From NCBI GenBank assembly GCA_965212115.1, contig CBDBUR010000001.1:240596-304595 (forward strand): a stretch of DNA of 64,000 nt, given 5' to 3'. Every line of letters begins with the position of its first letter. Positions within the stretch are counted from its first letter, which is position 1. Both the position numbers and the translations under genes were made by a program. The DNA comes from Alphaproteobacteria bacterium. GTDB lineage: Bacteria; Pseudomonadota; Alphaproteobacteria; JAPOUT01; G958296285. This document shows, in pieces, positions 12,236-52,329 of this stretch. The notes under the pieces are model-generated. The model saw nothing but the letters and a program-made list of their open reading frames with translations, searched no databases and was not told where the DNA came from.

Positions 12236-12288
12236 AGTCAAAGAGGATTTATATAAAAAGCGCGCTTAAAATTTTCAAAAGCCTCTAT

Positions 12289-13158
12289 TTATCTTCTTCT
12301 GACGCGCATGAGGCCTTCTTGGATGGCCGACGCGACAAGCCGCCCGTTGCTTGTATAGATCAAGCCGCGATTATATCCGCGTGCGCTTGACGTCGAGGGG
12401 CTGTCTTGAACATAGAGCAGCCACTCATCGGCGCGGAAGGGCCGATGAAACCACAAAGCGTGATCGAGGCTGGCCATTTGGATATTTTCGTTAAGCCAGT
12501 TAATGCCGTGCGGTGCGAGGCTGGTATCGAGCAGCGACATATCTGATGCATAGCTCAGCACACACAGGTGGATTTTGGGATCATCGGGGAGTTTTCCTTT
12601 GGCGCGCAGCCACACCGATTGGGGTTCGGTGGTTGGCTGCGGATCGAGCAGGTGGCGCCGATTAACAGGACGCAATTCGATCGGGCGGCGGCGGAGGAAA
12701 TGTTCACGGAATTGTTCGGGGATTTTATTGGCGATTTTTTCTCTGATGTTGTTTTCGCTTTCGAGGTTATCGGGCGCTGGGACATCGGGCATGGGGACGG
12801 CGTGTTCAAGGCCGGTTTCTTCGATTTGGAACGAAGCGGCCATGTGGAAAATTTCTTTGGCTTTTTGCGTAGCGATGACGCGGCGCGACGAGAAACTTTG
12901 GCCATTGCGGCTGCGCACGACCTCATAGAGGATCGGCGTCGTGGGATCACCGGGGCGCAAGAAATAAGAATGGAGCGAATGACAAGCGCGTTCGTCGTCG
13001 ATGGTGCGCTGCGCGGCGACGAGCGCTTGCGCGACCACTTGACCTCCGAACACGCGGCCCCAGCCGCCGGGCGGACTGTTGCCGCGAAAGAAATTGATAT
13101 CGATTTTTTCAAGGTCGAGGAGTTCAACGAGCGCATCGACATTATGAGCCATGCTCAT
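12289..13158 (-). CDS. tesB: Acyl-CoA thioesterase II
   Basis: The sequence LVELLDLEKIDINFFRGNSP...VFGGQVVAQAL...HSLHSYFLRPGD...LDHALWFH matches the double hot-dog TesB pattern. The start is placed at MSMAHNV (13158), so the gene does not overlap the upstream GST gene that ends at 13163. Confidence 0.85.
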   Translation of the reverse strand: MSMAHNVDALVELLDLEKIDINFFRGNSPPGGWGRVFGGQVVAQALVAAQRTIDDERACHSLHSYFLRPGDPTTPILYEVVRSRNGQSFSSRRVIATQKAKEIFHMAASFQIEETGLEHAVPMPDVPAPDNLESENNIREKIANKIPEQFREHFLRRRPIELRPVNRRHLLDPQPTTEPQSVWLRAKGKLPDDPKIHLCVLSYASDMSLLDTSLAPHGINWLNENIQMASLDHALWFHRPFRADEWLLYVQDSPSTSSARGYNRGLIYTSNGRLVASAIQEGLMRVRRR

Positions 13159-13162
13159 GGGA

Positions 13163-13999
13163 TCATCGCGATCGCGCGCGCTGTCCGAACAGGACCGCGC
13201 GCGCTTTTTTAGCTTCTTTGGAATCTGCGGCGAGATTGGAGCGCAATTCGGCGCCGGCATGGAATCCGCGCTGGACGGCGGGACGATCGCTGACACGTTT
13301 GAACCAGGCTTTGAGGTAAGGGAAATCAGCGAGGTCTTGGCCTTGCATGCCGTGTGGCAGCACCCAGCCCCAGCAAGCCATGTCGGCGATGGAATAGCTG
13401 CCAGCGAGATATTTCTGTTTTTTGAGCTGCGTGTTCATGACACCATAGAGTCGATTGACTTCATCGGTATATCGTTTAATTCCATAGGGATTGTCTTCGC
13501 CGTTGCTGGGAGCATATTGGCGAAAATGATGCGCTTGGCCGGCCATCGGACCAAGCCCACCCATCTGCCAGAACAGCCATTGATCGACGAGCATACGATT
13601 GCGCTCATTTTTGGGGTAGAATTTTCCGGTTTTGCGGCCGAGATATTGCAGGATCGCGCCGGATTCGAAGATAGAGATTGGCTTATGGCTCGGGCCTTGG
13701 GGATCGACGATTGCGGGCATTCGGTTATTGGGCGAGATTTTCAAGAAAGCGGGCTTAAACTGGTCGCCGCTGCCGATATTGACCGGCTTGATCTTATAAG
13801 GCAGGCCACATTCTTCGAGCATGATGGAAACTTTCCATCCATTTGGAGTTGGCCAATAATAGAGCTCGATAGGATTTTTAGGATTAGAAGCGCGTTTTGT
13901 TTTTGTTGCGGCTTTCTTTTTGGTCACGGGCTTTTTGGTCACGGGCTTTTTAGCTGTGATTTTTTTTGCGGTTTTCTTTGCAGTTTTCTTTATAGCCAT
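13163..13999 (-). CDS. Glutathione S-transferase (Nu/YfcG-YghU-like) with an N-terminal lysine-rich histone-H1-like tail
   Basis: The GST fold begins at PIELYYWPTPNGWKVSIMLEECGLPY. It is preceded in frame by MAIKKTAKKTAKKITAKKPVTKKPVTKKKAATKTKRAS. A GGAGGG Shine-Dalgarno lies 7 nt upstream of the ATG at 13997-13999. There is no alternative in-frame start between the tail and the GST domain. Confidence 0.8.
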   Translation of the reverse strand: MAIKKTAKKTAKKITAKKPVTKKPVTKKKAATKTKRASNPKNPIELYYWPTPNGWKVSIMLEECGLPYKIKPVNIGSGDQFKPAFLKISPNNRMPAIVDPQGPSHKPISIFESGAILQYLGRKTGKFYPKNERNRMLVDQWLFWQMGGLGPMAGQAHHFRQYAPSNGEDNPYGIKRYTDEVNRLYGVMNTQLKKQKYLAGSYSIADMACWGWVLPHGMQGQDLADFPYLKAWFKRVSDRPAVQRGFHAGAELRSNLAADSKEAKKARAVLFGQRARSR

Positions 14000-14159
14000 G
14001 TTGGACCCTCCTTCTATCAAAGAGGGCTATTTGAGGCTATAAGGAGCTTATTGTCAACAAAGAAAACATCGAGAGAACCAGTCCGGGCAGGAAGAGGATT
14101 GATTTTCTTCACTGCCCTAAACTGGAACTCACATGATCTATCGCTGGATGCCTTGAAGA

Positions 14160-14414
14160 CTACGCAGATCTTTTTTTCCGCCGCGTTGTTTTGCGTTTAG
14201 CGGTTTTGCGTTTGGGCGTCTTGCGTTTAGCGGTTTTCCGTTTAGCGGTTTTCCGTTTGGCTGTCTTGCGCTTAGCGGCTTTTTTGACGGTTTTCCGTTT
14301 GGCGGTTTTCCGTTTAGCTGTCTTGCGCTTAGCAGCTTTCTTGACGGTTTTCCGTTTAGCGGTTTTCCGTTTGGCGGTTTTCTTTTTGGCAGTTGATTTA
14401 CGTTTTACAGGCAT
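14160..14414 (-). CDS. Histone H1-like lysine/alanine-rich repeat protein (about 85 aa, almost entirely AKRKT repeats)
   Basis: MPVKRKSTAKKKTAKRKTAKRKTVKKAAKRKTAKRKTAKRKTVKKAAKRKT... A GGAG lies upstream of the ATG at 14414. The longer 121-aa track ORF has an implausible hydrophobic, low-complexity leader. Confidence 0.6.
   Translation of the reverse strand: MPVKRKSTAKKKTAKRKTAKRKTVKKAAKRKTAKRKTAKRKTVKKAAKRKTAKRKTAKRKTAKRKTPKRKTAKRKTTRRKKRSA
14186..14390. repeat. Tandem 15-bp / 60-bp coding repeats underlying the AKRKT pentapeptide array
   Basis: Repeated gcggttttccgttta-type 15-mers are visible in the sequence. A higher-order unit of about 60 bp (gacggttttccgtttggcggttttccgtttagctgtcttgcgcttagc...) is repeated twice. 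Confidence 0.8.
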
Positions 14415-14671
14415 GATTTCTACTCCTACAGTTTGGTTTTCGTTATCTCTGTTTGCTTTCTTGGACGAAAACTTATAGCGAGATGGAATTGTGTTTAGAG
14501 TTGCGCAAAAAAAATAAAACAGCAAGTTTTTATTGCATTTGTTTTTTGTGCGTGACGCATCAACAAAACGAAAGAAGTTTTTCTATTTTTTCATTTTTGG
14601 GTGTTGCGGCGCAAGGATTTGTTAACTTTTCGAATCAGCTTCAATTAGGCGGTGAGCCTGCTTTTCGAGCG

Positions 14672-16153
14672 TTAGGCGGTTAGATTGAGTTTTTTGCGCA
14701 AGATGTCATTAACGGTTTGCGGATTTGCTTTGCCTTGCGTTTCTTTCATCACTTGCCCGACAAACCACGCCAACATTTTTGGTTTAGCCTTGACGCGCTC
14801 AATTTTGTCCAGATTTTGCGCAATAATAGAATCACATGCGGCTTCTATTTTTTTGGCATCGGTGACTTGTTGCAGGCCTTTTTCTTCAATGATGAGATCG
14901 GGAAGCTGGCTTGTGTCGTACATAATTTCGAAGACCTGTTTTGCGATTTTGCCGGAGATGACATTGTCTTTGATGCGGGTGATAAGCTGTGCGAGCGCTT
15001 CGGCAGAGACGGGGGAGTTGTCTATCGAGCGTTCGGTTTTATTGAGGTGAGCGAGGAGCTCGCTGAGGATCCAGTTAGCGGCCTGTTTGGCGGGGATTTT
15101 TGCTTCTGCGATCAATTTAGCGGTCTGTTCAAAGAAATTGGCGCGGGTGCGCTCGGTGGTGAGCACAGCAGCTTCATAGGCAGTGAGGTCATATTCGGAT
15201 TGGAAGCGCTGTTTTTTTTGATCTGGCAGTTCGGGCAGGGAAGTTTTGATTTGCTCGACTTTATTTTTATCCAGCACGAGAGGCGGGAGATCGGGATCGG
15301 GGAAGTATCGATAATCATGGGCGTCTTCTTTGGAGCGCATCGAGCGTGTTTGACCTTGAGCGCTGTCGAACAATCTTGTTTCCTGCGTGATGGTTTCGCC
15401 ATTTTCAATGATCTTGATCTGACGTTGTGATTCATAATCTATCGCCTGAACGATGGCGCGCATAGAGTTGAGGTTTTTGATTTCGCAGCGTGTGCCGAGC
15501 GGCGCGCCGTGATGACGCACCGAGACATTAACATCGGCGCGCAGAGAGCCCTGCTCCATATTGCCATCGCAGACGTTGAGGTAGCGCAAGATGGTGCGCA
15601 GCTTGCGGACATATTGGCGTGCTTCATCGGCTGAGCGCATATCGGGTTTGGAGACGATCTCCATCAGCCCGATACCCGCGCGATTGAGATCGACGAAGCT
15701 TAGATTGGCGCTGCCTTGGGTTTCTTCATGGATATTTTTACCGGCGTCCTGTTCGATGTGGAGGCGTTCGATTCCGATTTTGCGTATTTGTCCATCGGCG
15801 AGGTCGAGGATGATCTCGCCGCCGGTGGCGATTGGATGTTCATATTGCGAGATTTGGTAGCCCTGCGGCAGGTCGGGATAGAAATAATTTTTGCGATCAA
15901 ACCGCGAGGTCGAGTGGATTTCCGCGCCTAGACCCAGAGCGGCGCGCACAGCCTGATAGACGCAGGCCATATTGACGACCGGCAAAGTGCCGGGGAAAGC
16001 AGCGTCGAGCAGAGCTAATTGCGTGTTGGGGGCGGCGCCGAACTCTGTCGGCGCAGAGGAGAACAATTTAGTTTTGGATATGATCTGCGCATGGACTTCA
16101 AGTCCGATGACGATTTCCCAATTATCATTATCACTCATTTTTAATTCCACCAT
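14672..16153 (-). CDS. gatB: Asp-tRNA(Asn)/Glu-tRNA(Gln) amidotransferase subunit B
   Basis: [13 protein letters not shown]..., [15 protein letters not shown], and a C-terminal GatB/YqeY domain. The alternative start MSDNDNW at 16138 is equally plausible. Confidence 0.93.
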
Positions 16154-26930: not shown

Positions 26931-27131
26931 TTAATGATCGGAATGGTTTTTGATCATTTGTTCAAGTTTGGCGCGTGTGAATCTTTCGGCGTTTTGCGGC
27001 GACAGGCCCATAGCGGTCAAGAATTCAAAGGCGGTCATTGCCCAGAAATCTTTGGGCGCGAGCTTTAACTCGCCTAACCCTAAAGCGATGAGCTGTCGCC
27101 AGGGGAAGGCTCTGTCTTGATGAGCTTTCCC
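26931..27131 (-). CDS. GTA g10.1-like tail assembly chaperone extension (rcc01693-family motif). It has no start codon of its own and is predicted to be reached by a -1 frameshift from g10.
   Basis: My own translation of the -1 frame is AHQDRAFPWRQLIALGLGELKLAPKDFWAMTAFEFLTAMGLSPQNAERFTRAKLEQMIKNHSDH*. The frame opens exactly after an in-frame TGA (27132-27134) at the heptamer GGGAAAG (27125-27131). There is no ATG/GTG/TTG before the late internal Met. Confidence 0.7.
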   Translation of the reverse strand, partial: GKAHQDRAFPWRQLIALGLGELKLAPKDFWAMTAFEFLTAMGLSPQNAERFTRAKLEQMIKNHSDH

Positions 27132-27469
27132 TCAGAGGCGGCCTCGCCACCGCCTGCGTCTGCGCCGCCAAAAGACAAAGAAATCAATCGCGCGACGAGC
27201 TGCATCGCCTCACTGAGGCCGCCTGCGGGCATCATCTGCGCGGCGTCTTCATCGGCGACATCATGCCCGCCGCCGCGCAGCGCGCAGCCGAGCACATGGA
27301 TGATATCGCTTGCGCGGATGCGTCCTTCGCTCAGCCTTTCGGTGAACGCGATGATGTCCTCACCGCTAAGCGCGGCTTCCAATTCGGCGAGAGCGCCCAA
27401 TGTCAGGCAGAGTCTATAGGGTTTGCCCGCTAAGGTCGCCTGAACTTCGCCGCGCCAATGATTAGTCAT
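27080..27469 (-). CDS. GTA g10-like tail assembly chaperone
   Basis: 129 aa beginning MTNHWRGEVQATLAGKPYRLCLTLGALAELEAAL, the typical 'gene transfer agent family protein' N-terminus. It sits between the major tail protein and the TMP. Confidence 0.82.
   Translation of the reverse strand: MTNHWRGEVQATLAGKPYRLCLTLGALAELEAALSGEDIIAFTERLSEGRIRASDIIHVLGCALRGGGHDVADEDAAQMMPAGGLSEAMQLVARLISLSFGGADAGGGEAASEGKLIKTEPSPGDSSSL
27125..27131 (-). promoter_or_regulatory. Candidate -1 programmed ribosomal frameshift slippery heptamer G GGA AAG (g10 into g10.1)
   Basis: The plus strand ctttccc at 27125-27131 gives GGGAAAG on the coding strand. In the g10 zero frame it reads G GGA AAG (X XXY YYZ). The heptamer is identical to the one used at the phage lambda G/GT tail-chaperone shift. 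Confidence 0.65.
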
Positions 27470-27899
27470 CTGCGGCCTCGAAAGCGAGCGCGCCCGCCGA
27501 TTCCAGCGACAACCGCCATGTCACTTCGCCATCATATTCACCGGCATATTCCAAGCCGGTCACTTGGAACTTGCCGTTCACATCATAGAAGTCGGGGATG
27601 TGGATCAGCCATTCGCTGATCGTGCCATTGACAAATTCTTGACGAATTTTGTTATCGGCGTCTTCGTCGCGGAACACGCCTTCGCCTGAGACGCTCATGG
27701 TTTTGAGTCCTGCGCCCGCGAGCAGCTCGCGCCATTGATGGCTTTGACTCGCATTGGATATATCTACTGATGTTGTGTTCAGCGAGATGTTATGAGCGCG
27801 CAGGCCTGCCATCGTCGCATAGACTTTGTCTTCTTCCTGCTCGGTTTCTTCTGAAACGAGAAGCTTGATGAGAATATCCTTGCCTTTTTGAGCGGTCAT
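27462..27899 (-). CDS. GTA g9-like major tail protein (TP901-1 family)
   Basis: 145 aa with the expected position and size. GKDILIKL...ATMAGLRAHNISLNTTSVDISN...SVSGEGVF is typical of phage major tail proteins of this family. Confidence 0.82.
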   Translation of the reverse strand: MTAQKGKDILIKLLVSEETEQEEDKVYATMAGLRAHNISLNTTSVDISNASQSHQWRELLAGAGLKTMSVSGEGVFRDEDADNKIRQEFVNGTISEWLIHIPDFYDVNGKFQVTGLEYAGEYDGEVTWRLSLESAGALAFEAADD

Positions 27900-28306
27900 A
27901 TTATTTCTCCTTTATTTTGTTTGGGTTCGGTGAGAGCGCGGAAAGTTAACTGTCCGCGCCAAGTTTTGCCATCGCTGACAGACTGCCAGCGCATTTCGGT
28001 GATCGTCAACAAGATGAGCTGGTGGCCTTCAACAGATAAAGAGCGCGCCGCGAGCACATTGTGAATTTCTTCGACGATTTCTTTAGTCTCGCTGATACCG
28101 TCATGCTGCGAGAAAACAAAGACATGACATTGATGGTCATGGCGGTTGATCTGATCGACGCCTTCAATGAGCGCACGGCCTTCGCCGATCGTCACATAGG
28201 GAAAGACAGCATCGGACGGCGCGCCATCATAGACGGCGATATTATTCAAGGTGCTGCTCAATCTTTGATGCAGCGCTTTTTGCAAGGCTAAAGAGGCGGG
28301 TTGCAT
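27896..28306 (-). CDS. GTA g8-like tail completion/terminator protein (DUF3168)
   Basis: LQKALHQRLSS...VYDGAPSDAVFPYVTIGEG is the DUF3168 pattern. The ATG at 28304-28306 overlaps the g7 stop (TAATG). Confidence 0.78.
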   Translation of the reverse strand: MQPASLALQKALHQRLSSTLNNIAVYDGAPSDAVFPYVTIGEGRALIEGVDQINRHDHQCHVFVFSQHDGISETKEIVEEIHNVLAARSLSVEGHQLILLTITEMRWQSVSDGKTWRGQLTFRALTEPKQNKGEII

Positions 28307-28653
28307 TATGCTTTCGCCTGCCGTTCGCGCAGATCTTCCTCGCAGATGCAAGTAAGAAAGCGCTTCGTGCCAGTCTGATCGAGCACGGAGAGGATATTGA
28401 ACACTCTTTGGCTATCAACTTTAGCTTCAACGAATCGCATTAAAGGCGTCAAATCTTTGCGCCAGCGCAAAGTGATGCGCGTTCTTGTTTTGCTCGCGAG
28501 ACTTTCGGCGAAGCTTTCCTGCGCGCCGGATATATCACGCAGATCGGCCCAGATTTTAGCGACTTCGTGCCAAGTGCGATTTTGTCCGCCGGTTCCATCG
28601 GCGGTGAGAGTCGGCGCCTGCAAAATAAGACGATGCCGCAAGCGCCCGATCAT
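28306..28653 (-). CDS. GTA g7-like head-tail adaptor / head closure protein
   Basis: 115 aa, MIGRLRHRLILQAPTLTADGTGGQNRTWHEVAKIWADL, the SPP1 gp16/HK97 gp10-like head-tail joining motif. Confidence 0.82.
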   Translation of the reverse strand: MIGRLRHRLILQAPTLTADGTGGQNRTWHEVAKIWADLRDISGAQESFAESLASKTRTRITLRWRKDLTPLMRFVEAKVDSQRVFNILSVLDQTGTKRFLTCICEEDLRERQAKA

Positions 28654-29186
28654 AATCTCACATTCCGATAGGGGGCGAGCAAAGCGGCGACCGATTTCGG
28701 CACGGCGCTGCCCATCAAAGAGGTGTTGCCGCGATTTTCAAACCAATAAGCTGTCAACTGCAAGATCGCCTGCGTCAAAGGCGCGGGCACATCGGCGGCG
28801 GCGGCATAGCCTGCGACAAAGGCCACTTCAGCGCGATGAACCGAAGCTAGCAGCTTCACTTTGATCGTTTCACCGCGCGCCTCGGCAATATAAGCATTTG
28901 CAGCGAGAGAGGTCGGCGTGTCATCAGGATCAAAAACCATGACCTCAGCGATGGACTTCGTCGGCTTGAGCGGCAGTTCATAAAACCCTGAGGGCTCGTC
29001 CAAATGAAACAGCCATGTCTGCTCGATCAAAGCGCGGCCGGTGCGCGCTTCAACCATCAAGCGCGCTGCGGTGATCAGTGAATTGATCAGCCCTTCCTCA
29101 TCGTTGTCATCGATGCGCAGATGGGCTTTGGCCTGATCCAAACTGACCGGCTCGATTGCCGGTCCGGTTTTGAGTGAAAGAAACAT
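28650..29186 (-). CDS. GTA g6-like head-tail connector (phage gp6-like)
   Basis: PVSLDQAKAHLRIDDNDEEGLINSLITAARLMVEARTGRAL is the gp6-like connector signature. I prefer the ATG at 29186 (GGAG upstream) over the TTG at 29207 used in the track, which lies inside a hairpin. Confidence 0.8.
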   Translation of the reverse strand: MFLSLKTGPAIEPVSLDQAKAHLRIDDNDEEGLINSLITAARLMVEARTGRALIEQTWLFHLDEPSGFYELPLKPTKSIAEVMVFDPDDTPTSLAANAYIAEARGETIKVKLLASVHRAEVAFVAGYAAAADVPAPLTQAILQLTAYWFENRGNTSLMGSAVPKSVAALLAPYRNVRL

Positions 29187-29205
29187 TGTAAAAATTTTCT
29201 CCGTC

Positions 29206-29238
29206 AAATGCCCGTCCGCGCAGAACGGACGGGCATTT
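29206..29238 (-). terminator. Perfect 13-bp stem-loop between the capsid gene g5 and g6 (candidate intrinsic terminator or attenuator)
   Basis: aaatgcccgtccg (29206-29218), loop cgcagaa, cggacgggcattt (29226-29238). On the transcribed strand the stem ends in UUU and is followed by GACGGAGAAAAUUUUU. Confidence 0.55.
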
Positions 29239-41535: not shown

Positions 41536-42008
41536 TTTCTAGCAGACACCGACAGCCTCGCCATCGGCAAAAGAAAAGTCCTGCCGCTTTGGACAAGCCT
41601 CACATTTTTCTCGGTGATCGCCTCGACGATGAACGGACGCGACGAACGCGCGTTGGAACCTGCGCTCAAACGATCTCCAATTTTGACGCGGATCACCTCA
41701 CGCTGCGGCGTCAAGAGATCAGCTTGCAGCTTCCCGCGCCAGCCCGCAATGAGCAGTATGCGATAGAATGGCTTTTGAGGCGTATTTTGAGTTCTAGGTT
41801 TTTGAGCCTGCTTGATCTTGCTCTTGGCCTCAGATTTTTTTGGCTTCTTTTGAGGCGTTTGGGCGCGCTTTTGGCGCTCTTGCTCAATTTGTTGCTGAAG
41901 AAATTTCTCCATCTGACTGGCCTGTGGACGCGCCTGCATCTCTTCGGTGAAAAGCAGCACCCAAGCCATCAACCCCAAGATCATCAAACTTCTACCCTGT
42001 CGTTTCAT
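41532..42008 (-). CDS. PilP-like (type IVb pilus biogenesis) periplasmic protein
   Basis: Signal peptide, then a lysine/glutamine-rich linker. The C-terminal beta domain is YRILLIAGWRGKLQADLL...VKIGDRLS...FIVEAITEKNVRLVQSGRTFLL, which resembles the PilP fold consensus. The position after the secretin fits. Confidence 0.5.
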   Translation of the reverse strand: MKRQGRSLMILGLMAWVLLFTEEMQARPQASQMEKFLQQQIEQERQKRAQTPQKKPKKSEAKSKIKQAQKPRTQNTPQKPFYRILLIAGWRGKLQADLLTPQREVIRVKIGDRLSAGSNARSSRPFIVEAITEKNVRLVQSGRTFLLPMARLSVSARK

Positions 42009-43542
42009 CAGACCTATCCACGATCGTCGGCGTGATCAAAATGATGATGACCTTGCGTGATTCAACTTTGTCGGCTTCAACGTTAGATTTAACGTCAGCC
42101 TCCACCTTAACAACATCATGTTCAAAACCCGAAACGACAAGAGTCGTGCCATCAGGAATGACCGTCTCTTGCGCCCAAGAGCTCGTCGAGATTTCGGGGA
42201 TTTGAACCCTGTTATTGCCCGCGCCCAAACTCTTGAGTCGGCTGAGCAGGCGCAATGACATCGACATATCCACCTGAACCCGATCGCGCGGCAAAATATG
42301 CGGGCGCAAATTCATCGAAAAACCGGTCGTGATTGTCGCAGGTGAAGCTGCACTGCCGCTCGCTGCACTGCCGCTCGCCGCTGCTGCCGTCGGACGCGGC
42401 AAATAGGCGCGCTGCGATATCGTCTTGATGGGTATAACTTTGCCGTCGCGTGTGCGCGTATCGGTGATCGTCAAAACAGAGACTTTGCCAACCTTGCGCA
42501 GCGCCGCAATAATCACATCAGTGCCGACGTCCGCCAATTTAATCTGCGGCGGCTTTTTGGATTTTTTATCCTCATCCAAGAGCGGTATCTGGCTGTCCAA
42601 ACCGATCGCCTCCAACAAGGCAGGCAGATTCAAACGGCCTCGATCCGAAAAACTCCGGCCGCCACTGACATCAAATGACAAAACCTGAACGTTTAAGTGA
42701 ATCTCACGGATGAAATATCGATTATGCGCGCGAATAAATTTCGCGGCCTGCTGCATGGCCGGAGGCGTGGTCGTCAATGTAATTTTGCCCGCCTCAGGCG
42801 ATAGATAAATCCGCGAGCCCGACGGCATCACGCTGGCCAAAATGCGCTTGATCCCCTGCCACCTTTTGCCCTCCGCAAGCAGCGGCGAGGCCGCTTCACC
42901 GGCCGCGCGCGAATCTAAAACAGGCAGCGCCACCGCGACACCATCGGGCGGCGCGTAAAAATCAAATGCGCGCGTCATGAGCCTCGTAAAAACAAGACTG
43001 CGGCTTTTTCGGTCATAAGACCATGAGGCCTCAAAGGCGCTCGCGACAACATCGAGCAGGCCCGTCAGTGCGCCGCGATAGTTCAAGCGCGCGAGCTTCA
43101 CCAGCTTGATCTCTCCGACATGGCCTGTTCTCACCCGCACCGGAATGCCAGCCATCTCAGATATTCTGCGGGAGATATGCTTGAGCTTCAAATCCACCGC
43201 GCTGATAAAAACCAGCTCCTGCTGATGCGTGATCGCGTCCGGCAGATTTTGTTGTCCCGGCGTGAAAAACTCCGACTCATCGCCGAGCCAAGCCTTGTCA
43301 ACATAGCGCGTGAGAGAACGCTGCGCTTTTTTCTTTTTCTCTTGTTTCTTTTGTTGGGGCCTCTCCTTGAGACTCTGCTGCAGCGCTTGATAGAATACTT
43401 GACGCTTTTCTTTGCTGCGCGCCTGCTCTTTTTCTTTCTGCACGGCCTCCTGCGAAGGCGGCGGCGCGATTTCACGAAATGAATAAGCGGCGCAGCCCGA
43501 CAGCAAAACAAAAGCGAGAAAAAAAACGATCAAACGCATCAT
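41992..43542 (-). CDS. Outer-membrane lipoprotein secretin (PilN/TcpC-like, type IVb family)
   Basis: Lipobox MMRLIVFFLAFVLLSGC. The C-terminal secretin-like core is VLTITDTRTRDGKVIPIK...IPEISTSSWAQETVIPDGTTLVVSGFEHD...RKVIIILITPTIV. Confidence 0.7.
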   Translation of the reverse strand: MMRLIVFFLAFVLLSGCAAYSFREIAPPPSQEAVQKEKEQARSKEKRQVFYQALQQSLKERPQQKKQEKKKKAQRSLTRYVDKAWLGDESEFFTPGQQNLPDAITHQQELVFISAVDLKLKHISRRISEMAGIPVRVRTGHVGEIKLVKLARLNYRGALTGLLDVVASAFEASWSYDRKSRSLVFTRLMTRAFDFYAPPDGVAVALPVLDSRAAGEAASPLLAEGKRWQGIKRILASVMPSGSRIYLSPEAGKITLTTTPPAMQQAAKFIRAHNRYFIREIHLNVQVLSFDVSGGRSFSDRGRLNLPALLEAIGLDSQIPLLDEDKKSKKPPQIKLADVGTDVIIAALRKVGKVSVLTITDTRTRDGKVIPIKTISQRAYLPRPTAAAASGSAASGSAASPATITTGFSMNLRPHILPRDRVQVDMSMSLRLLSRLKSLGAGNNRVQIPEISTSSWAQETVIPDGTTLVVSGFEHDVVKVEADVKSNVEADKVESRKVIIILITPTIVDRSDETTG

Positions 43543-44276
43543 TGAACACCCTCGCCCGCCTCAATGACAACAACACGGTTCTTATAAAAAACTGCATGAA
43601 TCGCAGAGCGCTTCTTCTCAAACGATGCCAAAACGCGACCGACGGCTTTCGGAAAATCTCCGATGAAAACAGCGTTGGCCTCGATCGGATATTCATAGGA
43701 CGACTTCCAAACAACGCGCCAGCCCGCGCGCGCGCCCCATTTTGCAAGTGTGCTCTGCAGCGTCTGTCCGGCATAGACCTGCCACCAATTCGGATTGAGC
43801 AGAGGATCACGCGAAGACACCCCAGTGATCGTCTGGCGCGGATACCATCTTTTGCCTGTCACCTCCTCATAGGCGTCATAGGCCGAGCTCATCAGCTCAT
43901 CAAGCAGGCGCTTTTTGTTGATCCCGCTTTTATAGACCGGCACCTCATAATCGGGGGTAGCTATTTTATTCGGATCGAAGTCATCGCCATAAAGCGCGCG
44001 GCCAAGACGATCAATCGCCTGATCGCCCTTCACGGCGGGCTTTTTGATCTTTTTTTGATCCAATGTACCGGGATCAATGTCGGCAGCTCCCGTTGAAACG
44101 CCATCTTGCGTCACAATGTAAGAATCCGGCGCAACCAATCCCTCCAACCCTTCCTGCGCCTCATCAGGCAGCACGATTTGCTCGCGGCTCGCGCAGCCGC
44201 TCAGAAAAACAAAAGCCGCCAAAATAGCTGCGCTCAAATTATAATTTTTTCTGCTCATATCCTTATATTTCCGCAT
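43539..44276 (-). CDS. Lipoprotein with a C-terminal TcpQ/PilL-like domain (secretin pilotin/partner)
   Basis: Lipobox AAFVFLSGC. The C-terminus WWQVYAGQTLQSTLAKWGARAGWRVVWKSSYEYPIEANAVFIGDFPKAVGRVLASF fits the TcpQ-domain pattern (W.v..G.tL...L..Wa..aGw.lvW....dy.i.a...f.G.f..Av..L). An ATGA overlap joins it to the secretin gene. The start is ambiguous (44336, 44276 or 44258). Confidence 0.65.
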   Translation of the reverse strand: MRKYKDMSRKNYNLSAAILAAFVFLSGCASREQIVLPDEAQEGLEGLVAPDSYIVTQDGVSTGAADIDPGTLDQKKIKKPAVKGDQAIDRLGRALYGDDFDPNKIATPDYEVPVYKSGINKKRLLDELMSSAYDAYEEVTGKRWYPRQTITGVSSRDPLLNPNWWQVYAGQTLQSTLAKWGARAGWRVVWKSSYEYPIEANAVFIGDFPKAVGRVLASFEKKRSAIHAVFYKNRVVVIEAGEGVQ

Positions 44277-44412
44277 TATCGGCTCAATTATCCACTCACC
44301 TCCCGACCAAACGGGGGCAGATAATATCTCTATCAATATCGCCTTAGGGTTAATTTTACCTTACCTCATAGCCTTGCGGCAGGCTCATTATATCTCCATA
44401 ATCGCTGCCAAA

Positions 44413-45689: not shown

Positions 45690-46964
45690 ATGAGTGAAAT
45701 CGCAAGAACCGAAACCCCCGCTTTGCCTTGGTATATGGCCGGACAAGCTTTCTGGTTCCTCGCGCATGGGATCCAGCTCGTCGCCTTCCAAGCGATCGGC
45801 GCGCTAGTGCTAAAACTTGACGCGACGATGCTCGGCGTCGCGCAGGCCTCGCTGCTGATACCCGCACTTTTTCTGATGCTGCCCGCCGGGGTCACTGCCG
45901 AGCGCAATGATGGCCGGATTATATTATTGCGGCTGCAGATCGTCGCGTTTTTTCCGCCGATCGCGCTGGGCTATATGGTGCTCGCCGACCAGCTGAGCTT
46001 GTTTGGCCTGATCATCTATGGCGTTGCGATGGGGACGATCAGCTCGTTCGTGATGCCCGCGCGCGACGCACTTCTGTCGCACATTGTCGGGGTTGATCAG
46101 ATACAGCGCGCGGTCAATATCGCGTTAGGCCTACAATTCACGGCAATGCTGACCGGCATGACTCTCGCCGCGCTTTCCGAGTTCATCGACATTGGCTGGA
46201 TACCCATCATGCAGAGCTTTATATTTATCGGCGCGAGCTATGCGGCGTTTCGTCTGCCGCGTGATCTCGCCCAGCGGCCAGAGCTATCCGGCGCGCTGCC
46301 GCGGCGACTGCCCGAAATGATTGACGGCATCAAAGTCGCGTTCGGCCATAAGGATATCTCACCGGTTCTGATTTTGCAGTTTGGGATTTCAATTTTTTAT
46401 ATCGGGACGTTTCTGGTGCTGCTGCCGATCTTGGTGCGCGATCATTATCAGGGCGACGCGGCAGACATAGCGATATTGAATATGATGTTTTGGGCAGGGA
46501 CGATCGTCTCGACGATCATGTTGCTGCGGATCGGGCAGATTGCCTCAGTCGGACGGCTACTGGCGATGGGTATCAGCTCTGGCCTTGTGGTGATTTTTCT
46601 GCTCTCCATCGAGAAGCCCTATTGGATGCTCGCCGCCCTTTGCGTATTTTGGGGGATCGCGGCAGGCTGTTCGATGTCGTCGGGACGGACGATCATCCAA
46701 AACCGCGCGCCGGACAGCCATCGCGCGCGGATTCTCTCGGTCTACCAGCTATCTTTTATGGGAGGCGCCCCGTTCGGCGCGCTCTTGACCGGCATTCTCG
46801 TTGATCTCTTCGGCAGCCATCAAGCGCCGTTATTCTCGGTCGGCGGGATGGGGATCATTTTGGCGCTTGTCGTGTGCTTCTCCGGCCTGTGGAACATCCG
46901 CCTGTCCGAGCGGGAGGTCGATAATGTCGAGGAAACCACCAGAATCACCGCCGAAGAAGAATAA
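45690..46964 (+). CDS. MFS transporter (MFS_3/EntS-like), paralogue 2
   Basis: Same architecture as the preceding gene, so this is a tandem duplication. Confidence 0.8.
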   Translation: MSEIARTETPALPWYMAGQAFWFLAHGIQLVAFQAIGALVLKLDATMLGVAQASLLIPALFLMLPAGVTAERNDGRIILLRLQIVAFFPPIALGYMVLADQLSLFGLIIYGVAMGTISSFVMPARDALLSHIVGVDQIQRAVNIALGLQFTAMLTGMTLAALSEFIDIGWIPIMQSFIFIGASYAAFRLPRDLAQRPELSGALPRRLPEMIDGIKVAFGHKDISPVLILQFGISIFYIGTFLVLLPILVRDHYQGDAADIAILNMMFWAGTIVSTIMLLRIGQIASVGRLLAMGISSGLVVIFLLSIEKPYWMLAALCVFWGIAAGCSMSSGRTIIQNRAPDSHRARILSVYQLSFMGGAPFGALLTGILVDLFGSHQAPLFSVGGMGIILALVVCFSGLWNIRLSEREVDNVEETTRITAEEE

Positions 46965-46969
46965 AAACC

Positions 46970-47254
46970 TTATAGTAGCCGTCTATAGCGACCATGCCGT
47001 TCATCATGGTGTTTTCTACACAAGACCTCAAGATTGCTTGGCCGATTATCACCTCTTTGACCGTTCTTATGATGGACTTCTATCAATCTATCTCTATCTA
47101 TATAATCTTTATAGCACTTACCGCCTTCCTCACAGGTATAGTTTTTTCTTTCTTTCCTTTCTTTCGCTATTTCTGGCCAATCCTTAGTATAATTTCCAGG
47201 CGGCATGGTTCCTGGCGTATTGCATGGTTTAGGTGGGGGCTTCATACTTTCCAT
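46970..47254 (-). CDS. HNH endonuclease domain protein (possible C-terminal part of a frameshifted ZorE-like effector)
   Basis: YTCEEGGKC...LIEVHHKNGQRGDNRPSNLEVLCRKHHDERH is a canonical HNH (beta-beta-alpha-Me) motif. It lies in the AT-rich island. Confidence 0.8.
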   Translation of the reverse strand: MESMKPPPKPCNTPGTMPPGNYTKDWPEIAKERKERKNYTCEEGGKCYKDYIDRDRLIEVHHKNGQRGDNRPSNLEVLCRKHHDERHGRYRRLL

Positions 47255-47735
47255 CTAAATAATCTCCAAAATTAAAATCTTCCCTTTTTATATTTGTATT
47301 ATTGATTTTATTATAGATGTCAAGGCAAGGTTGGCAAGGCAATAATTCATACAGCTTCTCAGGAGGTTCTTTATTATCAATAATAAGTTTTGCAGGAAAT
47401 TTTTCATCACCTCTTCTTACCCAAACAAATTTGTCTTTATAATCATTTTCATTCTGCTTCTTTTGAAGAACCCAACAATTTGTAAGGTGAACTCTGCGCC
47501 TGTCTTCTATATTATTAACAGGATCTTTGCCATAGTGAGACTGATACGTTTGATTATAAATATAAACGAGATACCACTGCCTATATTTCCCAAATACTCC
47601 TTCCGGTCCTACAAACTTCTCGATATCTTTCAGTTCAATATCACCACCTTCTTCCATTATATACACTTTGCCTCGGAGGTGAGGAGGTAAAATCCTGTCT
47701 AAAGTTTCCCGCACTTCTGATATATCAATATTCAT
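47229..47735 (-). CDS. Hypothetical protein (168 aa) of the MotAB-HNH island (possible N-terminal part of a ZorE-like effector)
   Basis: I recognise no motif. It is AT-rich, has a 4-nt overlap with the upstream MotB-like gene, and a 26-nt out-of-frame overlap with the HNH ORF. Confidence 0.55.
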   Translation of the reverse strand: MNIDISEVRETLDRILPPHLRGKVYIMEEGGDIELKDIEKFVGPEGVFGKYRQWYLVYIYNQTYQSHYGKDPVNNIEDRRRVHLTNCWVLQKKQNENDYKDKFVWVRRGDEKFPAKLIIDNKEPPEKLYELLPCQPCLDIYNKINNTNIKREDFNFGDYLDGKYEAPT

Positions 47736-48427
47736 TTTTTCTCAAAACCTCTGATAATTTCTTCAATCCTACTTTCAGCTTTTGTGCGCACACGAAATTC
47801 AACCCGGCGTGAGAGGCGCTTATTTTCCCGCCCTCTCGTCTCACGCAACCGACTTGAAGACAGCCCGGTTGCCGTTAGATACCTCCTAATCCAAGAGCGA
47901 TACTGACCCACACCAGAGAGGCTATCAGCATATTTCAGAACAGCGAGTGTGCGCTCCTGAGAAAGTTTCATATTACAAAAATATGCATCCGGACATTTAT
48001 CATCCTCTTTCCATTCTGATGATGTATGACCTTCAATGCGCACTTCGCTGATTTCCTTTCTGTGCTCAGAGTGAAGCAAGTGAATAAAACGGGGGAAAAA
48101 ATCTCTGATAATCACCTTAAATCTTTTTTTGAGCTTTGCTTTTCCCGCATCAAAAAATACCCTTGGCGTATTGAAGCGAATTATCAAAGTATCGCGCTCA
48201 ATTTCCGCATTCCACCGCGGAAGATCATCCTTAAACTCTTCATATAGGCTTTCGTAAATTTTATCTTTTGAGTCCTTCCAAGCCTGCGCTGTATTAAGTG
48301 TCTGGAGAATAAAGGCGATTGCGATAAACAAAAACAGCACCATCAGCCCGGCCATGAGGTCAGACACAGAGAGCCATTGTTCTTGTTCTGAACCTTTGCC
48401 CTCGCCAAAAATCTGTTCCGTGCTCAT
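47732..48427 (-). CDS. MotB/OmpA-like stator subunit with a peptidoglycan-binding domain (ZorB-like)
   Basis: The single TM helix carries the conserved Asp (WLSVSDLMAGLMVLFLF, compare the MotB plug/Asp region). The C-terminal OmpA-like domain reads RIEGHTSSEW...MKLSQERTLAVLKY...NKRLSRRVEFRV. Confidence 0.8.
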   Translation of the reverse strand: MSTEQIFGEGKGSEQEQWLSVSDLMAGLMVLFLFIAIAFILQTLNTAQAWKDSKDKIYESLYEEFKDDLPRWNAEIERDTLIIRFNTPRVFFDAGKAKLKKRFKVIIRDFFPRFIHLLHSEHRKEISEVRIEGHTSSEWKEDDKCPDAYFCNMKLSQERTLAVLKYADSLSGVGQYRSWIRRYLTATGLSSSRLRETRGRENKRLSRRVEFRVRTKAESRIEEIIRGFEKK

Positions 48428-49617
48428 TGTCTTCCGTTGAACCTATCGATTGCTTGTGTCAGGCTGTCAACCGCCTGATTTACTTTATCATATTGACCAG
48501 CAAGCGCCTCCGCCAAAACCACTAAACGGTTTCCTAGTTCTTGAATGGCTGTTCTTAATGCGCGTTCTATCTCTCCGTCAAGAGCGTTTTGATTGTTTTT
48601 AATCGCTTCCAACAACTGCTTGGCGAATTTAGTTTGATCGACAACCGCATCTTTTGAGGTGTTAATGGCCTCATTAACCGCAGCGGCCATTCCTTCTGTC
48701 ATTGACTTCAAATTATTCTCTATAATTGGAAAAGTGTTTTGCGCCTTATCTCCGAGACTAGCTATCGCCGTAAGAGTTGCCTCTAATTTTGTTGTCTTAT
48801 CTCTAGCGTCCTCCAATAATGGGCCAAGGCTCTCAAGCGTCTCTGGCAAGGCCGTTGTCTTGTCCACAATCTGGGTCAAAGATTCAGCCGATCTGCCCAG
48901 ATCACCAATCACTCTTTTAATTTGCTCTTCAAGGTTATCCATTTGCTGGCGATAATTCTCTTGCCAATCCACTAACTTACCGACAGCTTCATTTAGCTGT
49001 TTGAAATTATCACCAAACTGCTCGTTAATCTTGGCATTAAAATCTCGCATAACATTTTCAAGAGCTTCTATAAGAGCTTGTGAATTGTCCTCAGCCATTT
49101 TTTGAGCAAACTCTTGAAACTCGAATATAAGTTTTTTGCTGTTATCATTCATTTCTGTCCGAAGATTCTTTAACTGGGTTAACAAGGTGTCGTCAGAATC
49201 TCCGGCAATAGACTTCCGCAAATCACTCAAAGCAGTTTTTTGCTCCTGTGTTGCATTTTGTATGCCCACCAAAACACTATGAATCTCGCCCGGCCCGACG
49301 TCGCCTTGACTAGCTTCTTCACCAAATGAACCGCGCGCAGAAAGAATCTTGAAGACAAGCCCTGCGAACATGCCAGCAATACTTGTCGCAAAAGCAATCT
49401 TAAGACCGCCAAGCAAAGGAGGAATGCTCTCTCTAATTTTTTGGGGATCTTCGACATTAAAATCCCACAAGCCAATAAAAATACCAACAAAAGTTCCAAG
49501 AACGCCAATTGTTGTAAGAGTCGCAGGAGTCGAGCTTCTAAGTTTAGAATTGCGCCACCCTTGTATAAAAAACAAAGCAATAACTACTACAAAAATTGCA
49601 ATAACGATGTATTCCAT
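48424..49617 (-). CDS. MotA/ExbB-family proton-channel protein with a C-terminal helical/coiled-coil tail of about 280 aa (ZorA-like)
   Basis: TM helices with MotA_ExbB motifs (TTIGVLGTFVGIFIGL; GLKIAFATSIAGMFAGLVFKIL). These are followed by a long E/K/Q/L/N-rich heptad-like sequence up to the stop. Confidence 0.78.
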   Translation of the reverse strand: MEYIVIAIFVVVIALFFIQGWRNSKLRSSTPATLTTIGVLGTFVGIFIGLWDFNVEDPQKIRESIPPLLGGLKIAFATSIAGMFAGLVFKILSARGSFGEEASQGDVGPGEIHSVLVGIQNATQEQKTALSDLRKSIAGDSDDTLLTQLKNLRTEMNDNSKKLIFEFQEFAQKMAEDNSQALIEALENVMRDFNAKINEQFGDNFKQLNEAVGKLVDWQENYRQQMDNLEEQIKRVIGDLGRSAESLTQIVDKTTALPETLESLGPLLEDARDKTTKLEATLTAIASLGDKAQNTFPIIENNLKSMTEGMAAAVNEAINTSKDAVVDQTKFAKQLLEAIKNNQNALDGEIERALRTAIQELGNRLVVLAEALAGQYDKVNQAVDSLTQAIDRFNGRQ

Positions 49618-49729
49618 AAAAATCCCCCCTAAATTAAGATCGTCCTGCCGACTGCGCAGGACAGAAATTTTACTATATCAGACTGGATCCCCGCTTGCGC
49701 GGGGATGACAAATGGAAACCAGCGCCTAT

Positions 49730-49795
49730 GACTAGCTTAGGACTAGCTTAGGACTAGCTTAGGACTAACTTATGACTAACTTATGACTAACTATA
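49730..49795. repeat. Six tandem copies of an 11-bp unit (gactagcttag x3, gactaacttat x2, gactaactata x1)
   Basis: Read directly from the sequence. The array overlaps the stop codon of the enoyl-CoA hydratase gene (49787-49789) and lies upstream of the ZorA-like gene. Confidence 0.9.
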
Positions 49796-50707: not shown

Positions 50708-51418
50708 CTATAAATCTTGCGGCGAGGCTATGTTCATATAGCCATTATATTCCTTGTCAATGAGATCAAAACTCTTGAACTTGACCCGCTTCTTCATCGA
50801 CTGAAACGTCGCACTTTTCATTTTGTCATCAAAGCTGCGGCGGCGCGAAACATCCGAGATAATAAAAAACTCCGCATGAAAATCTTGCAGCTCGGTGAAC
50901 TTCATCAAAGAACGAATGAAATCCGTCGTGAACTCAACCTCATAAAAACGCGCAGGCATGCGGCGGCCATTAAACCAAATCGCATCGACCGTCTTGGCCT
51001 GCTGCAAAAGCTCGCGATGACTGAACGCAGGCAGATCAGCCTCGTCGCAGAAATCGCCGACCAAACCGCCCGAAAATACCTTCTTCTGCCTGTCCTGAGG
51101 CGGCGCGTAGGTGCGGAACTGCCTCAGACGACCCAGCTCCAACAAGCGCGCCTGATAATAACTATGAAAATCATTATGCTCTTTGGTGATCTTCGTGCCG
51201 GTCTTGAAATGCGCAAATTGCTTGTCGTGCTTGGCGAGGCAGTAAAGGCCCGGACGCAGACGGCAGAACTCATCCTCCTGCTGGACGAGCCGCTGAATGG
51301 ACAAAAAAGGTGTCTTCGTCGACCATTGAGAAATATCGGTCTTTTGATAGAGATCGCGCAATGTCGCGATGCCACCGAGACGATCAAACGCCTCAACGAG
51401 CTGGATTTTCTGTTTCAT
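50708..51418 (-). CDS. Hypothetical protein with an N-terminal winged-helix and a C-terminal putative nuclease. It is a candidate restriction endonuclease partner of the adjacent methyltransferase.
   Basis: The N-terminus LGGIATLRDLYQKT...RLRPGLYCL resembles Mrr_N-type wHTH domains. The C-terminal VDAIWFNGRRMPARFYEVEFTTDFIRSLMK could be a PD-(D/E)xK-like core. It lies directly downstream of the MTase on the same strand. Confidence 0.35.
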   Translation of the reverse strand: MKQKIQLVEAFDRLGGIATLRDLYQKTDISQWSTKTPFLSIQRLVQQEDEFCRLRPGLYCLAKHDKQFAHFKTGTKITKEHNDFHSYYQARLLELGRLRQFRTYAPPQDRQKKVFSGGLVGDFCDEADLPAFSHRELLQQAKTVDAIWFNGRRMPARFYEVEFTTDFIRSLMKFTELQDFHAEFFIISDVSRRRSFDDKMKSATFQSMKKRVKFKSFDLIDKEYNGYMNIASPQDL

Positions 51419-51489
51419 TTCTCCCCCTACCCTTTCCGTGATTATTTTTTCTTAACCCAACAAACGAGTATGTCGCGGGAATGATGATT

Positions 51490-52329
51490 CTATACTATCT
51501 CCGATAGACGCGGGATGGCAAAATTTCTTAAATAATTCATCTCTGAATCTATGCCGACAAACTGGCGGCCATGATGAAGCGCGGCGACTCCCGTTGTGGC
51601 ACTGCCGCAAAAAGGATCAAGAACGAGGCTGCCCTTTTGGGTAGACGCGAGAACGATGCGCTCCAAAAGAGCGAGAGGCTTTTGGGTCGGATGTTTGCCG
51701 TATTTTTTCTCTGACGGGCTGGGCGTTGGAATTGCCCAGACAGAGCGCATTTGCTTGCCGGACTTTTTGATTGTGTCCTTCGGCCATTCGCAGTCGCGCA
51801 TGGTTTCGTAGTTAAAAACATGAGAGGCTTTTTTATTCTTGCGCGCCCAGATAAGAGTTTCATGGCTGGCGGTGAACATGCGGCAGGATAGATTGGGCGC
51901 GGCATTGGGTTTGAACCAGCAAATGTCGTTCAAAATATGCCAGCCGCCCTGCTGCAGAGCGAAGCCGCAGCTATAAATAGAATGATAGGTGCCGGAAATC
52001 CATAGAGTGCCGTTGGGCTTCAATGCCCGACGACAAGCGGCAACCCAGCTCTGATGAAAAGCAAAGTCTTCGTCTATGCCTTGGCTTTTATCCCATTTGC
52101 CCTTATTGACGCTGACGCGGCGGCCAGCATGGCAGGTGAAGCCGTCATTGGATAGGTTATAAGGCGGATCAGCAAAAATCATATCAAACGACTCCGCTGG
52201 AAAGCTCGCCATCACCTCAAGCGCTTCGCCATAAAAAAGGCGTAGATTCTTAGTCTTAAATAGGGGCTTCACCGATTTCTCCGAAAACGAATCGATCGGA
52301 TCGTTGATCAGATCGGTGAAACAGATCAA
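51490..52329 (-). CDS. Beta-class DNA methyltransferase (N6-adenine or N4-cytosine)
   Basis: The catalytic motif IV FADPPYNL precedes the AdoMet motif I LDPFCGSATTGVAAL (order IV then I, hence beta class). The ParB-less MT-A70-unrelated N6_N4_Mtase pattern is present. The start is TTG at 52329. Confidence 0.85.
   Translation of the reverse strand: MICFTDLINDPIDSFSEKSVKPLFKTKNLRLFYGEALEVMASFPAESFDMIFADPPYNLSNDGFTCHAGRRVSVNKGKWDKSQGIDEDFAFHQSWVAACRRALKPNGTLWISGTYHSIYSCGFALQQGGWHILNDICWFKPNAAPNLSCRMFTASHETLIWARKNKKASHVFNYETMRDCEWPKDTIKKSGKQMRSVWAIPTPSPSEKKYGKHPTQKPLALLERIVLASTQKGSLVLDPFCGSATTGVAALHHGRQFVGIDSEMNYLRNFAIPRLSEIV

Follow-up and report, generated by a model that had tools for sequence, protein, structure and literature searches.

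A compact type II Zorya cassette with an apparently frameshifted zorE gene in an alphaproteobacterial genome

A stretch of 64,000 nucleotides from an Alphaproteobacteria bacterium (GenBank assembly GCA_965212115.1, contig CBDBUR010000001.1, positions 240,596 to 304,595), referred to here as the window, carries an AT-rich locus that reads as a compact three-gene type II Zorya anti-phage cassette. The cassette appears to have been horizontally acquired, and its effector gene, zorE, appears to be broken by a single extra C; this reading as a whole is given a probability of about 0.55. An initial annotation of the same DNA had described four co-directional open reading frames (ORFs) whose successive overlaps are 4, 4 and 26 nt, the last of them out of frame. 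This layout was confirmed, on the minus strand, and the features on which the argument depends are the following.

48424-49617, minus strand: zorA, an ORF of 397 amino acids (aa)
47732-48427, minus strand: zorB, an ORF of 231 aa
47229-47735, minus strand: 5' fragment of zorE, an ORF of 168 aa
46970-47254, minus strand: 3' fragment of zorE, an ORF of 94 aa, called from an internal ATG
47235-47239, minus strand: homopolymer of five C, site of the +1 frameshift, in the context ...GAA GCC CCC ACC TAA...
46942-49786: inserted AT-rich cassette, with bounds set against the empty site in the relative L003

The product of zorA (gene 1) matches the PADLOC model ZorA2 PDLC00637 with an E-value of 7.3e-83, residues 5-388 being aligned to positions 18-374 of the 420 in the profile, while the best ZorA1 model reaches only 7e-20. 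It also aligns over residues 6-324 with chain 8vvi_F of the PDB, the 378-aa type II ZorA of Sulfuricurvum kujiense (1.8e-50). Three N-terminal transmembrane (TM) helices (about residues 3-92) are followed by a helical cytoplasmic tail of ~300 aa; a comparison with Pfam gave nothing above any gathering threshold for this protein and weak coiled-coil-type matches only. The product of zorB (gene 2) matches PADLOC ZorB2 PDLC00641 (2.8e-82) and chain 8vvi_A (2e-43), and for both genes the type I and type III PADLOC models score far below those of type II. ZorB comprises an N-terminal TM helix with D23, which aligns to D21, the critical channel aspartate of the solved type II ZorB, and an OmpA-like peptidoglycan-binding domain (Pfam OmpA, 1.6e-08, above the gathering score), much as the initial annotation had described gene 2. 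The likeness to type II Zorya that it proposed is likewise borne out, by the scores of ZorA2 and ZorB2, by the matches to 8VVI and by the gene order zorA-zorB-zorE, and the PADLOC comparison that it had suggested returned ZorA2, ZorB2 and ZorE2, the last for two fragments at consecutive profile positions.

A ZorA of only 397 aa had been regarded as unusual at first, but such a length is normal in type II, with 378 aa in the solved S. kujiense protein, 420 positions in the best-matching model and 363 aa in the ZorA-like protein of the Psychrobacter plasmid pA17BP1. Type II components are substantially smaller than those of type I, and sizes are well conserved within each family (PMC11890865). 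Among the best 120 homologues of the ZorA in the window, lengths range from 351 to 601 aa with a median of 476 aa, and nine of them have 400 aa or fewer; in the three related cassettes, called here the sister loci, ZorA has 394-445 aa. Counts of mismatches at conserved columns reveal no excess for either motor protein, with 6 out of 77 for ZorA (5, 6 and 12 in the sisters) and 5 out of 83 for ZorB (4, 7 and 4 in the sisters), and both genes look intact and constrained. For the exact sequence of this ZorB no record was found in other assemblies.

ZorAB belongs to the same 5:2 motor superfamily as MotAB, TolQR and ExbBD, and ZorB weakly matches MotB models, the best at 30 bits against a cut-off of 259, which would fit an energising module for motility or the envelope with an unrelated HNH gene adjoining it. 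However, the Zorya models outscore the others by more than 150 bits, ZorA is without a Pfam match above any gathering threshold, both domains encoded by the downstream gene specifically resemble ZorE, the vicinity has no flagellar, Tol or Ton partner genes, and the whole cassette is missing from L003, the closest relative. Such a module is effectively refuted by the profile and structure-sequence matches and is considered highly improbable.

The two ORFs downstream of zorB are best read together. The 168-aa ORF, initially taken for an unknown protein, matches PADLOC ZorE2 PDLC00642 over profile positions 47-177 of 283 (2e-10) and carries a precomputed Pfam assignment to PF26739 (DUF8245), while the 94-aa ORF, taken for a separate HNH nuclease, matches ZorE2 over positions 186-260 of 282 (1.8e-19) and Pfam HNH_3 (1.3e-06). 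Since ZorE consists of an N-terminal DUF8245 and a central HNHc domain, point mutations in either of which abolish defence (PMC13192584), the supposedly unknown 168-aa protein can be assigned to the DUF8245 domain. This fragment ends at a premature TAA located two codons past the frameshift. When one C is removed in silico, a 254-aa ORF results, in which the break lies at about residue 167. The repaired ORF yields a single unbroken ZorE2 match (residues 29-245 to profile positions 47-257 of 283, 107 bits) and aligns end to end with single-ORF relatives of 251, 251 and 266 aa, at ~50-51% identity and 98-99% coverage. These three are the only close ZorE relatives found in a collection of ~5.8 billion proteins, and the two for which the genomic context is available form three-gene zorA-zorB-zorE operons with 4-nt overlaps, as in the window. 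A profile of the intact relatives, run against 1.84 billion representatives, retrieved 884 ZorE representatives at an E-value of 1e-10 or better; among the best 150 of them, the sole stop at the junction is that of the window's own 168-aa fragment.

An AlphaFold2 model of the repaired ZorE, for which an alignment of 104 sequences replaced one of four sequences (predicted local distance difference test, pLDDT, 39), is confident as one unit, with a pLDDT of 85.5 and a predicted template modelling score (pTM) of 0.73. In this model the break falls in a coil (residues 162-185) that links the final helix of DUF8245 to the initial helix of HNH; the prediction gives this coil an ordered conformation and packs the DUF8245 and HNH halves into a single unit. 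A Foldseek comparison of the model with the PDB gave no significant whole-protein match and weak partial matches to HNH domains, and a sequence search of the PDB found no solved ZorE structure. Judging by these alignments, the 168-aa and 94-aa ORFs are the DUF8245 and HNH domains of one zorE, split by a single extra C. The initial annotation had envisaged a minimal or variant subtype with an unusual effector; its assignment to type II Zorya is upheld by the profiles and by 8VVI, but the novelty falls away, as the length of ZorA is normal, genes 3 and 4 represent one ordinary zorE in two pieces, and the proteins essentially score as ordinary type II ZorA, ZorB and ZorE.

The nature of the lesion was assessed using residue conservation in the 104-sequence alignment; residues are numbered as in the repaired protein. 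The HNH zinc site has two CxxC knuckles, and the second cysteine of each (positions 204 and 242, respectively) is kept in 103/103 other sequences, whereas the ZorE of the window has G204 and H242 and is the sole one of the 104 that lacks both cysteines. At columns conserved in at least 90% of sequences it has 4/22 mismatches, the highest number of all (median 0; 0-1 in the sisters). The assembly is not otherwise rich in errors. None of five close out-of-frame ORF pairs in the window is another split gene, all of them being separate complete genes; for the 10 flanking genes that match a gene of L003, the alignment spans 90-100% of the length; and the coding density is 94%, with long uninterrupted ORFs. 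The lost cysteines, the excess of changes at conserved columns in ZorE alone and the absence of other breaks among the genes checked make a genuine lesion more likely than an assembly error, and a true disruption of zorE by the extra C is somewhat favoured.

Several points weigh against this reading. The run of five C is short, and yet such a run is a classic site of real and sequencing indels alike. The zinc-site residues of DUF8245 (H83, C87, C134 and C137) are intact and the catalytic HNH residues (H221, H222, N234, H243 and H247) are all present, while the G204 and H242 replacements could represent compensated remodelling, in which the clade-specific C207 together with H242 would serve as zinc ligands. 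Divergence between the window and its sisters, divided by that among the sisters, amounts to 1.37 for ZorE, compared with 1.94 for ZorA and 2.17 for ZorB, so that zorE is not accelerated overall; any decay should therefore be recent or confined to a few residues. Long-standing pseudogene decay of zorE is not claimed, given the outcome of this relative-rate comparison. With respect to the family assignment, the top NCBIfam matches are the type II ZorA2, ZorB2 and ZorE equivalogs, but the scores stay far below the equivalog cut-offs (207 bits against 700, 185 against 400 and 51 against 600, respectively), which marks these proteins as members of a clade divergent from the E. coli reference; the broader ZorA2, ZorB2 and ZorE2 models of PADLOC do cover this divergent clade.

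Some of the same evidence would suit an organism with an undamaged zorE and a fully functional operon, in which case the extra C at 47235-47239 would have arisen as a homopolymer error during sequencing or assembly. The frameshift sits exactly in a homopolymer, and without one base the gene encodes a full-length protein that is collinear with those of all relatives and keeps every catalytic residue; zorE displays no overall rate acceleration, zorA and zorB look fully constrained, and related contigs come from low-coverage metagenome assemblies, the name of one sister contig carrying '8x'. Against such an error stands the absence of any further broken gene from the five ORF pairs and 10 flanking genes checked; the high coding density and long uninterrupted ORFs also speak against it, and it leaves unexplained two substitutions at cysteines kept in all 103 other sequences. 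An intact zorE is thus regarded as possible but rather doubtful.

A further interpretation is that the split is functional: ZorE might still be made as one protein, by +1 ribosomal frameshifting or by slippage during transcription at the C-run, which might act as an on/off switch, or DUF8245 and HNH might work as two polypeptides. The HNH frame would be regained by a +1 slip at CCC-A or at the ACC-TAA stop, although the site lacks a canonical slippery or stimulatory context, and five C are few for phase variation. The HNH fragment has its own in-frame ATG with GGAG 8 nt upstream, and a sigma70-like sequence with 11/12 matches (TTGCCA-16-TATAAT, 47310-47337, minus strand) lies ~55 nt upstream of this ATG; these signals could serve separate expression of the HNH fragment or be due to chance in AT-rich DNA, where promoter-like matches are common (9 in the region versus 5.5 +/- 2.3 in shuffled sequences). 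The break does fall in a coil segment between two domains in the AlphaFold2 model, but the coil is predicted to be ordered and the domains to pack as one unit (pTM 0.73), none of the other proteins among the best 150 of the 884 homologues and none of the close relatives is split or frameshifted there, and the E. coli ZorE needs both domains for defence (PMC13192584; domains supplied as separate proteins lie outside that work). A functional split of this kind is accordingly rated improbable, and programmed +1 frameshifting in particular was judged unlikely, the shift occurring in no homologue and no canonical slippery or stimulator context being present.

More generally, the split would not be a defect if DUF8245 and HNH acted as separate polypeptides, the HNH half having a remodelled C-x5-C...C-x2-H zinc site, if expression were switched by slippage at the C-run, or if the ZorAB pair were selected without a working ZorE, signalling to another effector or having an effector-independent role. 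Even taken jointly, these three routes are considered quite improbable.

The acquisition of the cassette from elsewhere is indicated by its composition and by the empty site in a relative. In windows of 400 nt the G+C content is 0.34-0.45 within the island and 0.51-0.60 in the flanking genes, and the cassette as a whole has 0.413, compared with 0.542 and 0.527 in its flanks, in agreement with the AT-rich foreign segment described initially. The flanks, which had been correctly recognised, consist of two tandem major facilitator superfamily (MFS) transporter genes on one side and an enoyl-CoA hydratase (crotonase) gene on the other. When the crotonase was scanned against 185,579 species genomes, its closest relatives were found in metagenome-assembled genomes of uncultured Alphaproteobacteria (88% and 76% identity), with Parvibaculum and Tepidicaulis next (~63-66%). 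In the closest relative, L003, the neighbourhood is syntenic but lacks the Zorya genes, and the convergent stops of crotonase and the second MFS gene, MFS2, lie ~12 nt apart, forming an empty site. Flanking proteins are 61-91% identical to those of L003, and the products of the two genes abutting the junction 88% and 91%. Homology to L003 detected by blastn stops at window positions 49787 and about 46941, which delimits an insert of ~2.85 kb that supplies the last ~7 codons of MFS2. The presence of an empty site at the same junction in L003 argues for a real insertion.

The same crotonase/MFS2 junction in another relative, L004, holds other cargo (positions 11016-15462), namely genes for two paralogous secreted haemagglutinin-like proteins of ~690 aa, the likeness being of their N-termini to the haemagglutinin type, with 43% G+C. 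The comparison of gene neighbourhoods proposed in the initial annotation thus revealed both an empty site and an alternative insertion, which would mark this junction as a hotspot for foreign cargo. The cassette has ~41% G+C in three different hosts, in which the flanks have 47-56%, and type II ZorB relatives with 41-48% identity were found on one phage-like contig and 14 plasmids, among them an E. coli plasmid on which the Prokaryotic Genome Annotation Pipeline labels the genes zorA2, zorB2 and zorE. A search of the cassette found no integrase, nearby tRNA gene, or terminal direct or inverted repeats. Taken from these sequence comparisons, the cassette is a horizontal acquisition inserted into a variable convergent crotonase/MFS junction.

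Among known systems, the nearest with a solved structure is the type II ZorA5B2 complex of S. kujiense, determined by cryo-electron microscopy (PDB 8VVI; PMC11890865). Its ZorA is likewise compact, at 378 aa against 397 aa in the window, and both share the TM2/TM3 motifs, the tail segment FGDNFKQLN...WQENYR and the channel aspartate of ZorB. The two belong to different clades, and the last ~70 residues of the tail in the window fall outside the alignment. The type II Zorya of E. coli (ATCC 8739; annotated by the Prokaryotic Genome Annotation Pipeline as zorA2-zorB2-zorE on plasmid NZ_CP127005.1) has the same gene order and a tight operon as in the window; its ZorB is 41% identical and of similar size (235 versus 231 aa), and its ZorE likewise consists of DUF8245 and HNH. 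In comparison, the repaired ZorE of the window is a minimal form of 254 aa, and it is frameshifted.

The sister cassettes L001 and L002 (ENA ERZ25069326) and that of a third contig of 47 kb are the closest counterparts, with ZorA 64-71%, ZorB ~76% and ZorE ~50-51% identical. One of the sister ZorA proteins has exactly 397 aa, and the sisters share with the window the 4-nt overlaps and ~41% G+C. Their zorE genes, unlike that of the window, are single intact ORFs of 251-266 aa with all four zinc-knuckle cysteines.

A three-gene operon on the Psychrobacter plasmid pA17BP1 (NZ_MN657036.1, L084) encodes a ZorA-like protein of 363 aa, an OmpA-family ZorB of 223 aa (48% identical) and an HNH protein of 291 aa. 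It differs from the locus in the window in that the plasmid is mobilizable and only 7.5 kb long, ZorE is intact, and the operon is not annotated as Zorya; by its gene content it looks like an unannotated type II Zorya system. Little else is carried by pA17BP1 beyond mobilization genes and this operon, the three products of which are labelled in RefSeq as hypothetical protein, OmpA family protein and HNH protein. If correctly assigned, the plasmid is evidence that type II cassettes with a short tail are mobile and are represented in RefSeq already.

Type I Zorya systems (ZorABCD; PDB 8QYD and 8VVN) have the same ion-driven 5:2 motor core, but their ZorA of ~700 aa has a much longer tail, their effectors ZorC and ZorD are absent from the window cassette, which contains no further genes, and the ZorA1 and ZorB1 models and structures match the window proteins weakly. 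Flagellar MotAB also has the 5:2 motor core, without the tail and the nuclease partner.

The region upstream of zorA contains several elements that may bear on expression of the motor genes.

49618-49786, minus strand: region upstream of zorA, inside the inserted segment, 169 nt
49730-49789, minus strand: tandem repeat of 11 nt in 5.5 copies, unit TAGTCMTAAGY (Tandem Repeats Finder), starting exactly at the crotonase stop codon
49689-49704: perfect palindrome CCCCGCGCAAGCGGGG, found by pattern search
49680-49672, minus strand: extended -10-like sequence TGATATAGT, noted by eye
49663-49641, minus strand: terminator-like hairpin, found by a terminator scan, between TGATATAGT and the Shine-Dalgarno sequence of zorA
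49624-49630, minus strand: G-rich Shine-Dalgarno sequence of zorA, read from the sequence

A sigma70 scan of the 169-nt region gave no match, and the putative role of TGATATAGT as a -10 element is suggested by its likeness to the TGATATAAT / TGATATGAT motif upstream of zorA in L001 and L002. The sister loci have a clear promoter of the TGnTATAAT type with this -10 motif, without the hairpin and the tandem repeats seen in the window. Because the hairpin is present here and absent there, expression of zorAB may be attenuated in the window. The tandem repeat, which lies within the insert, has no counterpart in L003; it may have arisen by slippage or may serve as an array for protein binding upstream of zorA. 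The palindrome CCCCGCGCAAGCGGGG occurs only once in the window, so it is not a repeated element there.

No flagellar, Tol or Ton genes lie within ~8 kb of the cassette, as had been reported for its vicinity, and the nearest envelope genes are a secretin gene and a TcpQ-like pilus gene. These two genes (516 and 265 aa; 41992-44336, minus strand), located upstream of the MFS pair and conserved in L003, probably belong to a type IVb/Tad-like pilus locus. On the other side, the crotonase gene is adjoined, within 50708-52329, by a gene for a CcrM-like beta-class N6-adenine DNA methyltransferase (PADLOC MTase_II, 1.5e-93), a protein of 279 aa that matches the 350-position CcrM profile only to position 249. 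The 236-aa protein encoded beside it belongs to no Pfam family and weakly matches a type II restriction endonuclease (E 0.005). In L003 the 236-aa gene is present and a match to the methyltransferase is absent, while in L004 the reverse is found; the two may form a small restriction-modification pair or be unrelated genes. Farther away, at ~27080-29207 of the window, head-tail genes with gene-transfer-agent signatures were found, in a cluster that probably reaches from ~24.4 to 34 kb. The set includes a GTA-gp10-type Phage_TAC_11 domain and tail tube, tail completion, head completion and head-tail connector proteins, and would fit an RcGTA-like cluster of the kind typical of Alphaproteobacteria.

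By homology to 8VVI, five ZorA and two ZorB subunits would form an ion-driven 5:2 motor in the inner membrane, with ZorB anchoring it to peptidoglycan and the C-termini of ZorA bundled into a pentameric cytoplasmic tail. On phage infection such a complex would recruit the soluble ZorE nickase, composed of DUF8245 and HNH, to the membrane, where ZorE would nick phage and host DNA and thereby confer protection at the level of the population. ZorAB-dependent recruitment of the ZorE nickase and population-level immunity have been demonstrated for the type II system of E. coli (PMC11890865; PMC13192584), and it is from this relative that canonical phage protection by the cassette is inferred. In E. 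coli, deletion of any component abolishes protection against T7 (PMC11890865), and canonical defence should therefore be lost if zorE is truly frameshifted. With a genuine lesion the system would probably be effector-defective and inactive in canonical defence.

In annotation terms, the locus should be described as a type II Zorya system with a frameshifted zorE, and not as a four-gene variant system. It documents a compact and rather rare type II clade, for which only three close ZorE relatives are found among ~5.8 billion proteins, and provides a natural example of cassette gain at a hotspot, where related genomes have an empty site or alternative cargo. The locus may also be a snapshot of effector loss with the ZorAB motor still intact, and, if the frameshift is confirmed by sequencing reads, it would bear on the shedding of costly nuclease effectors.

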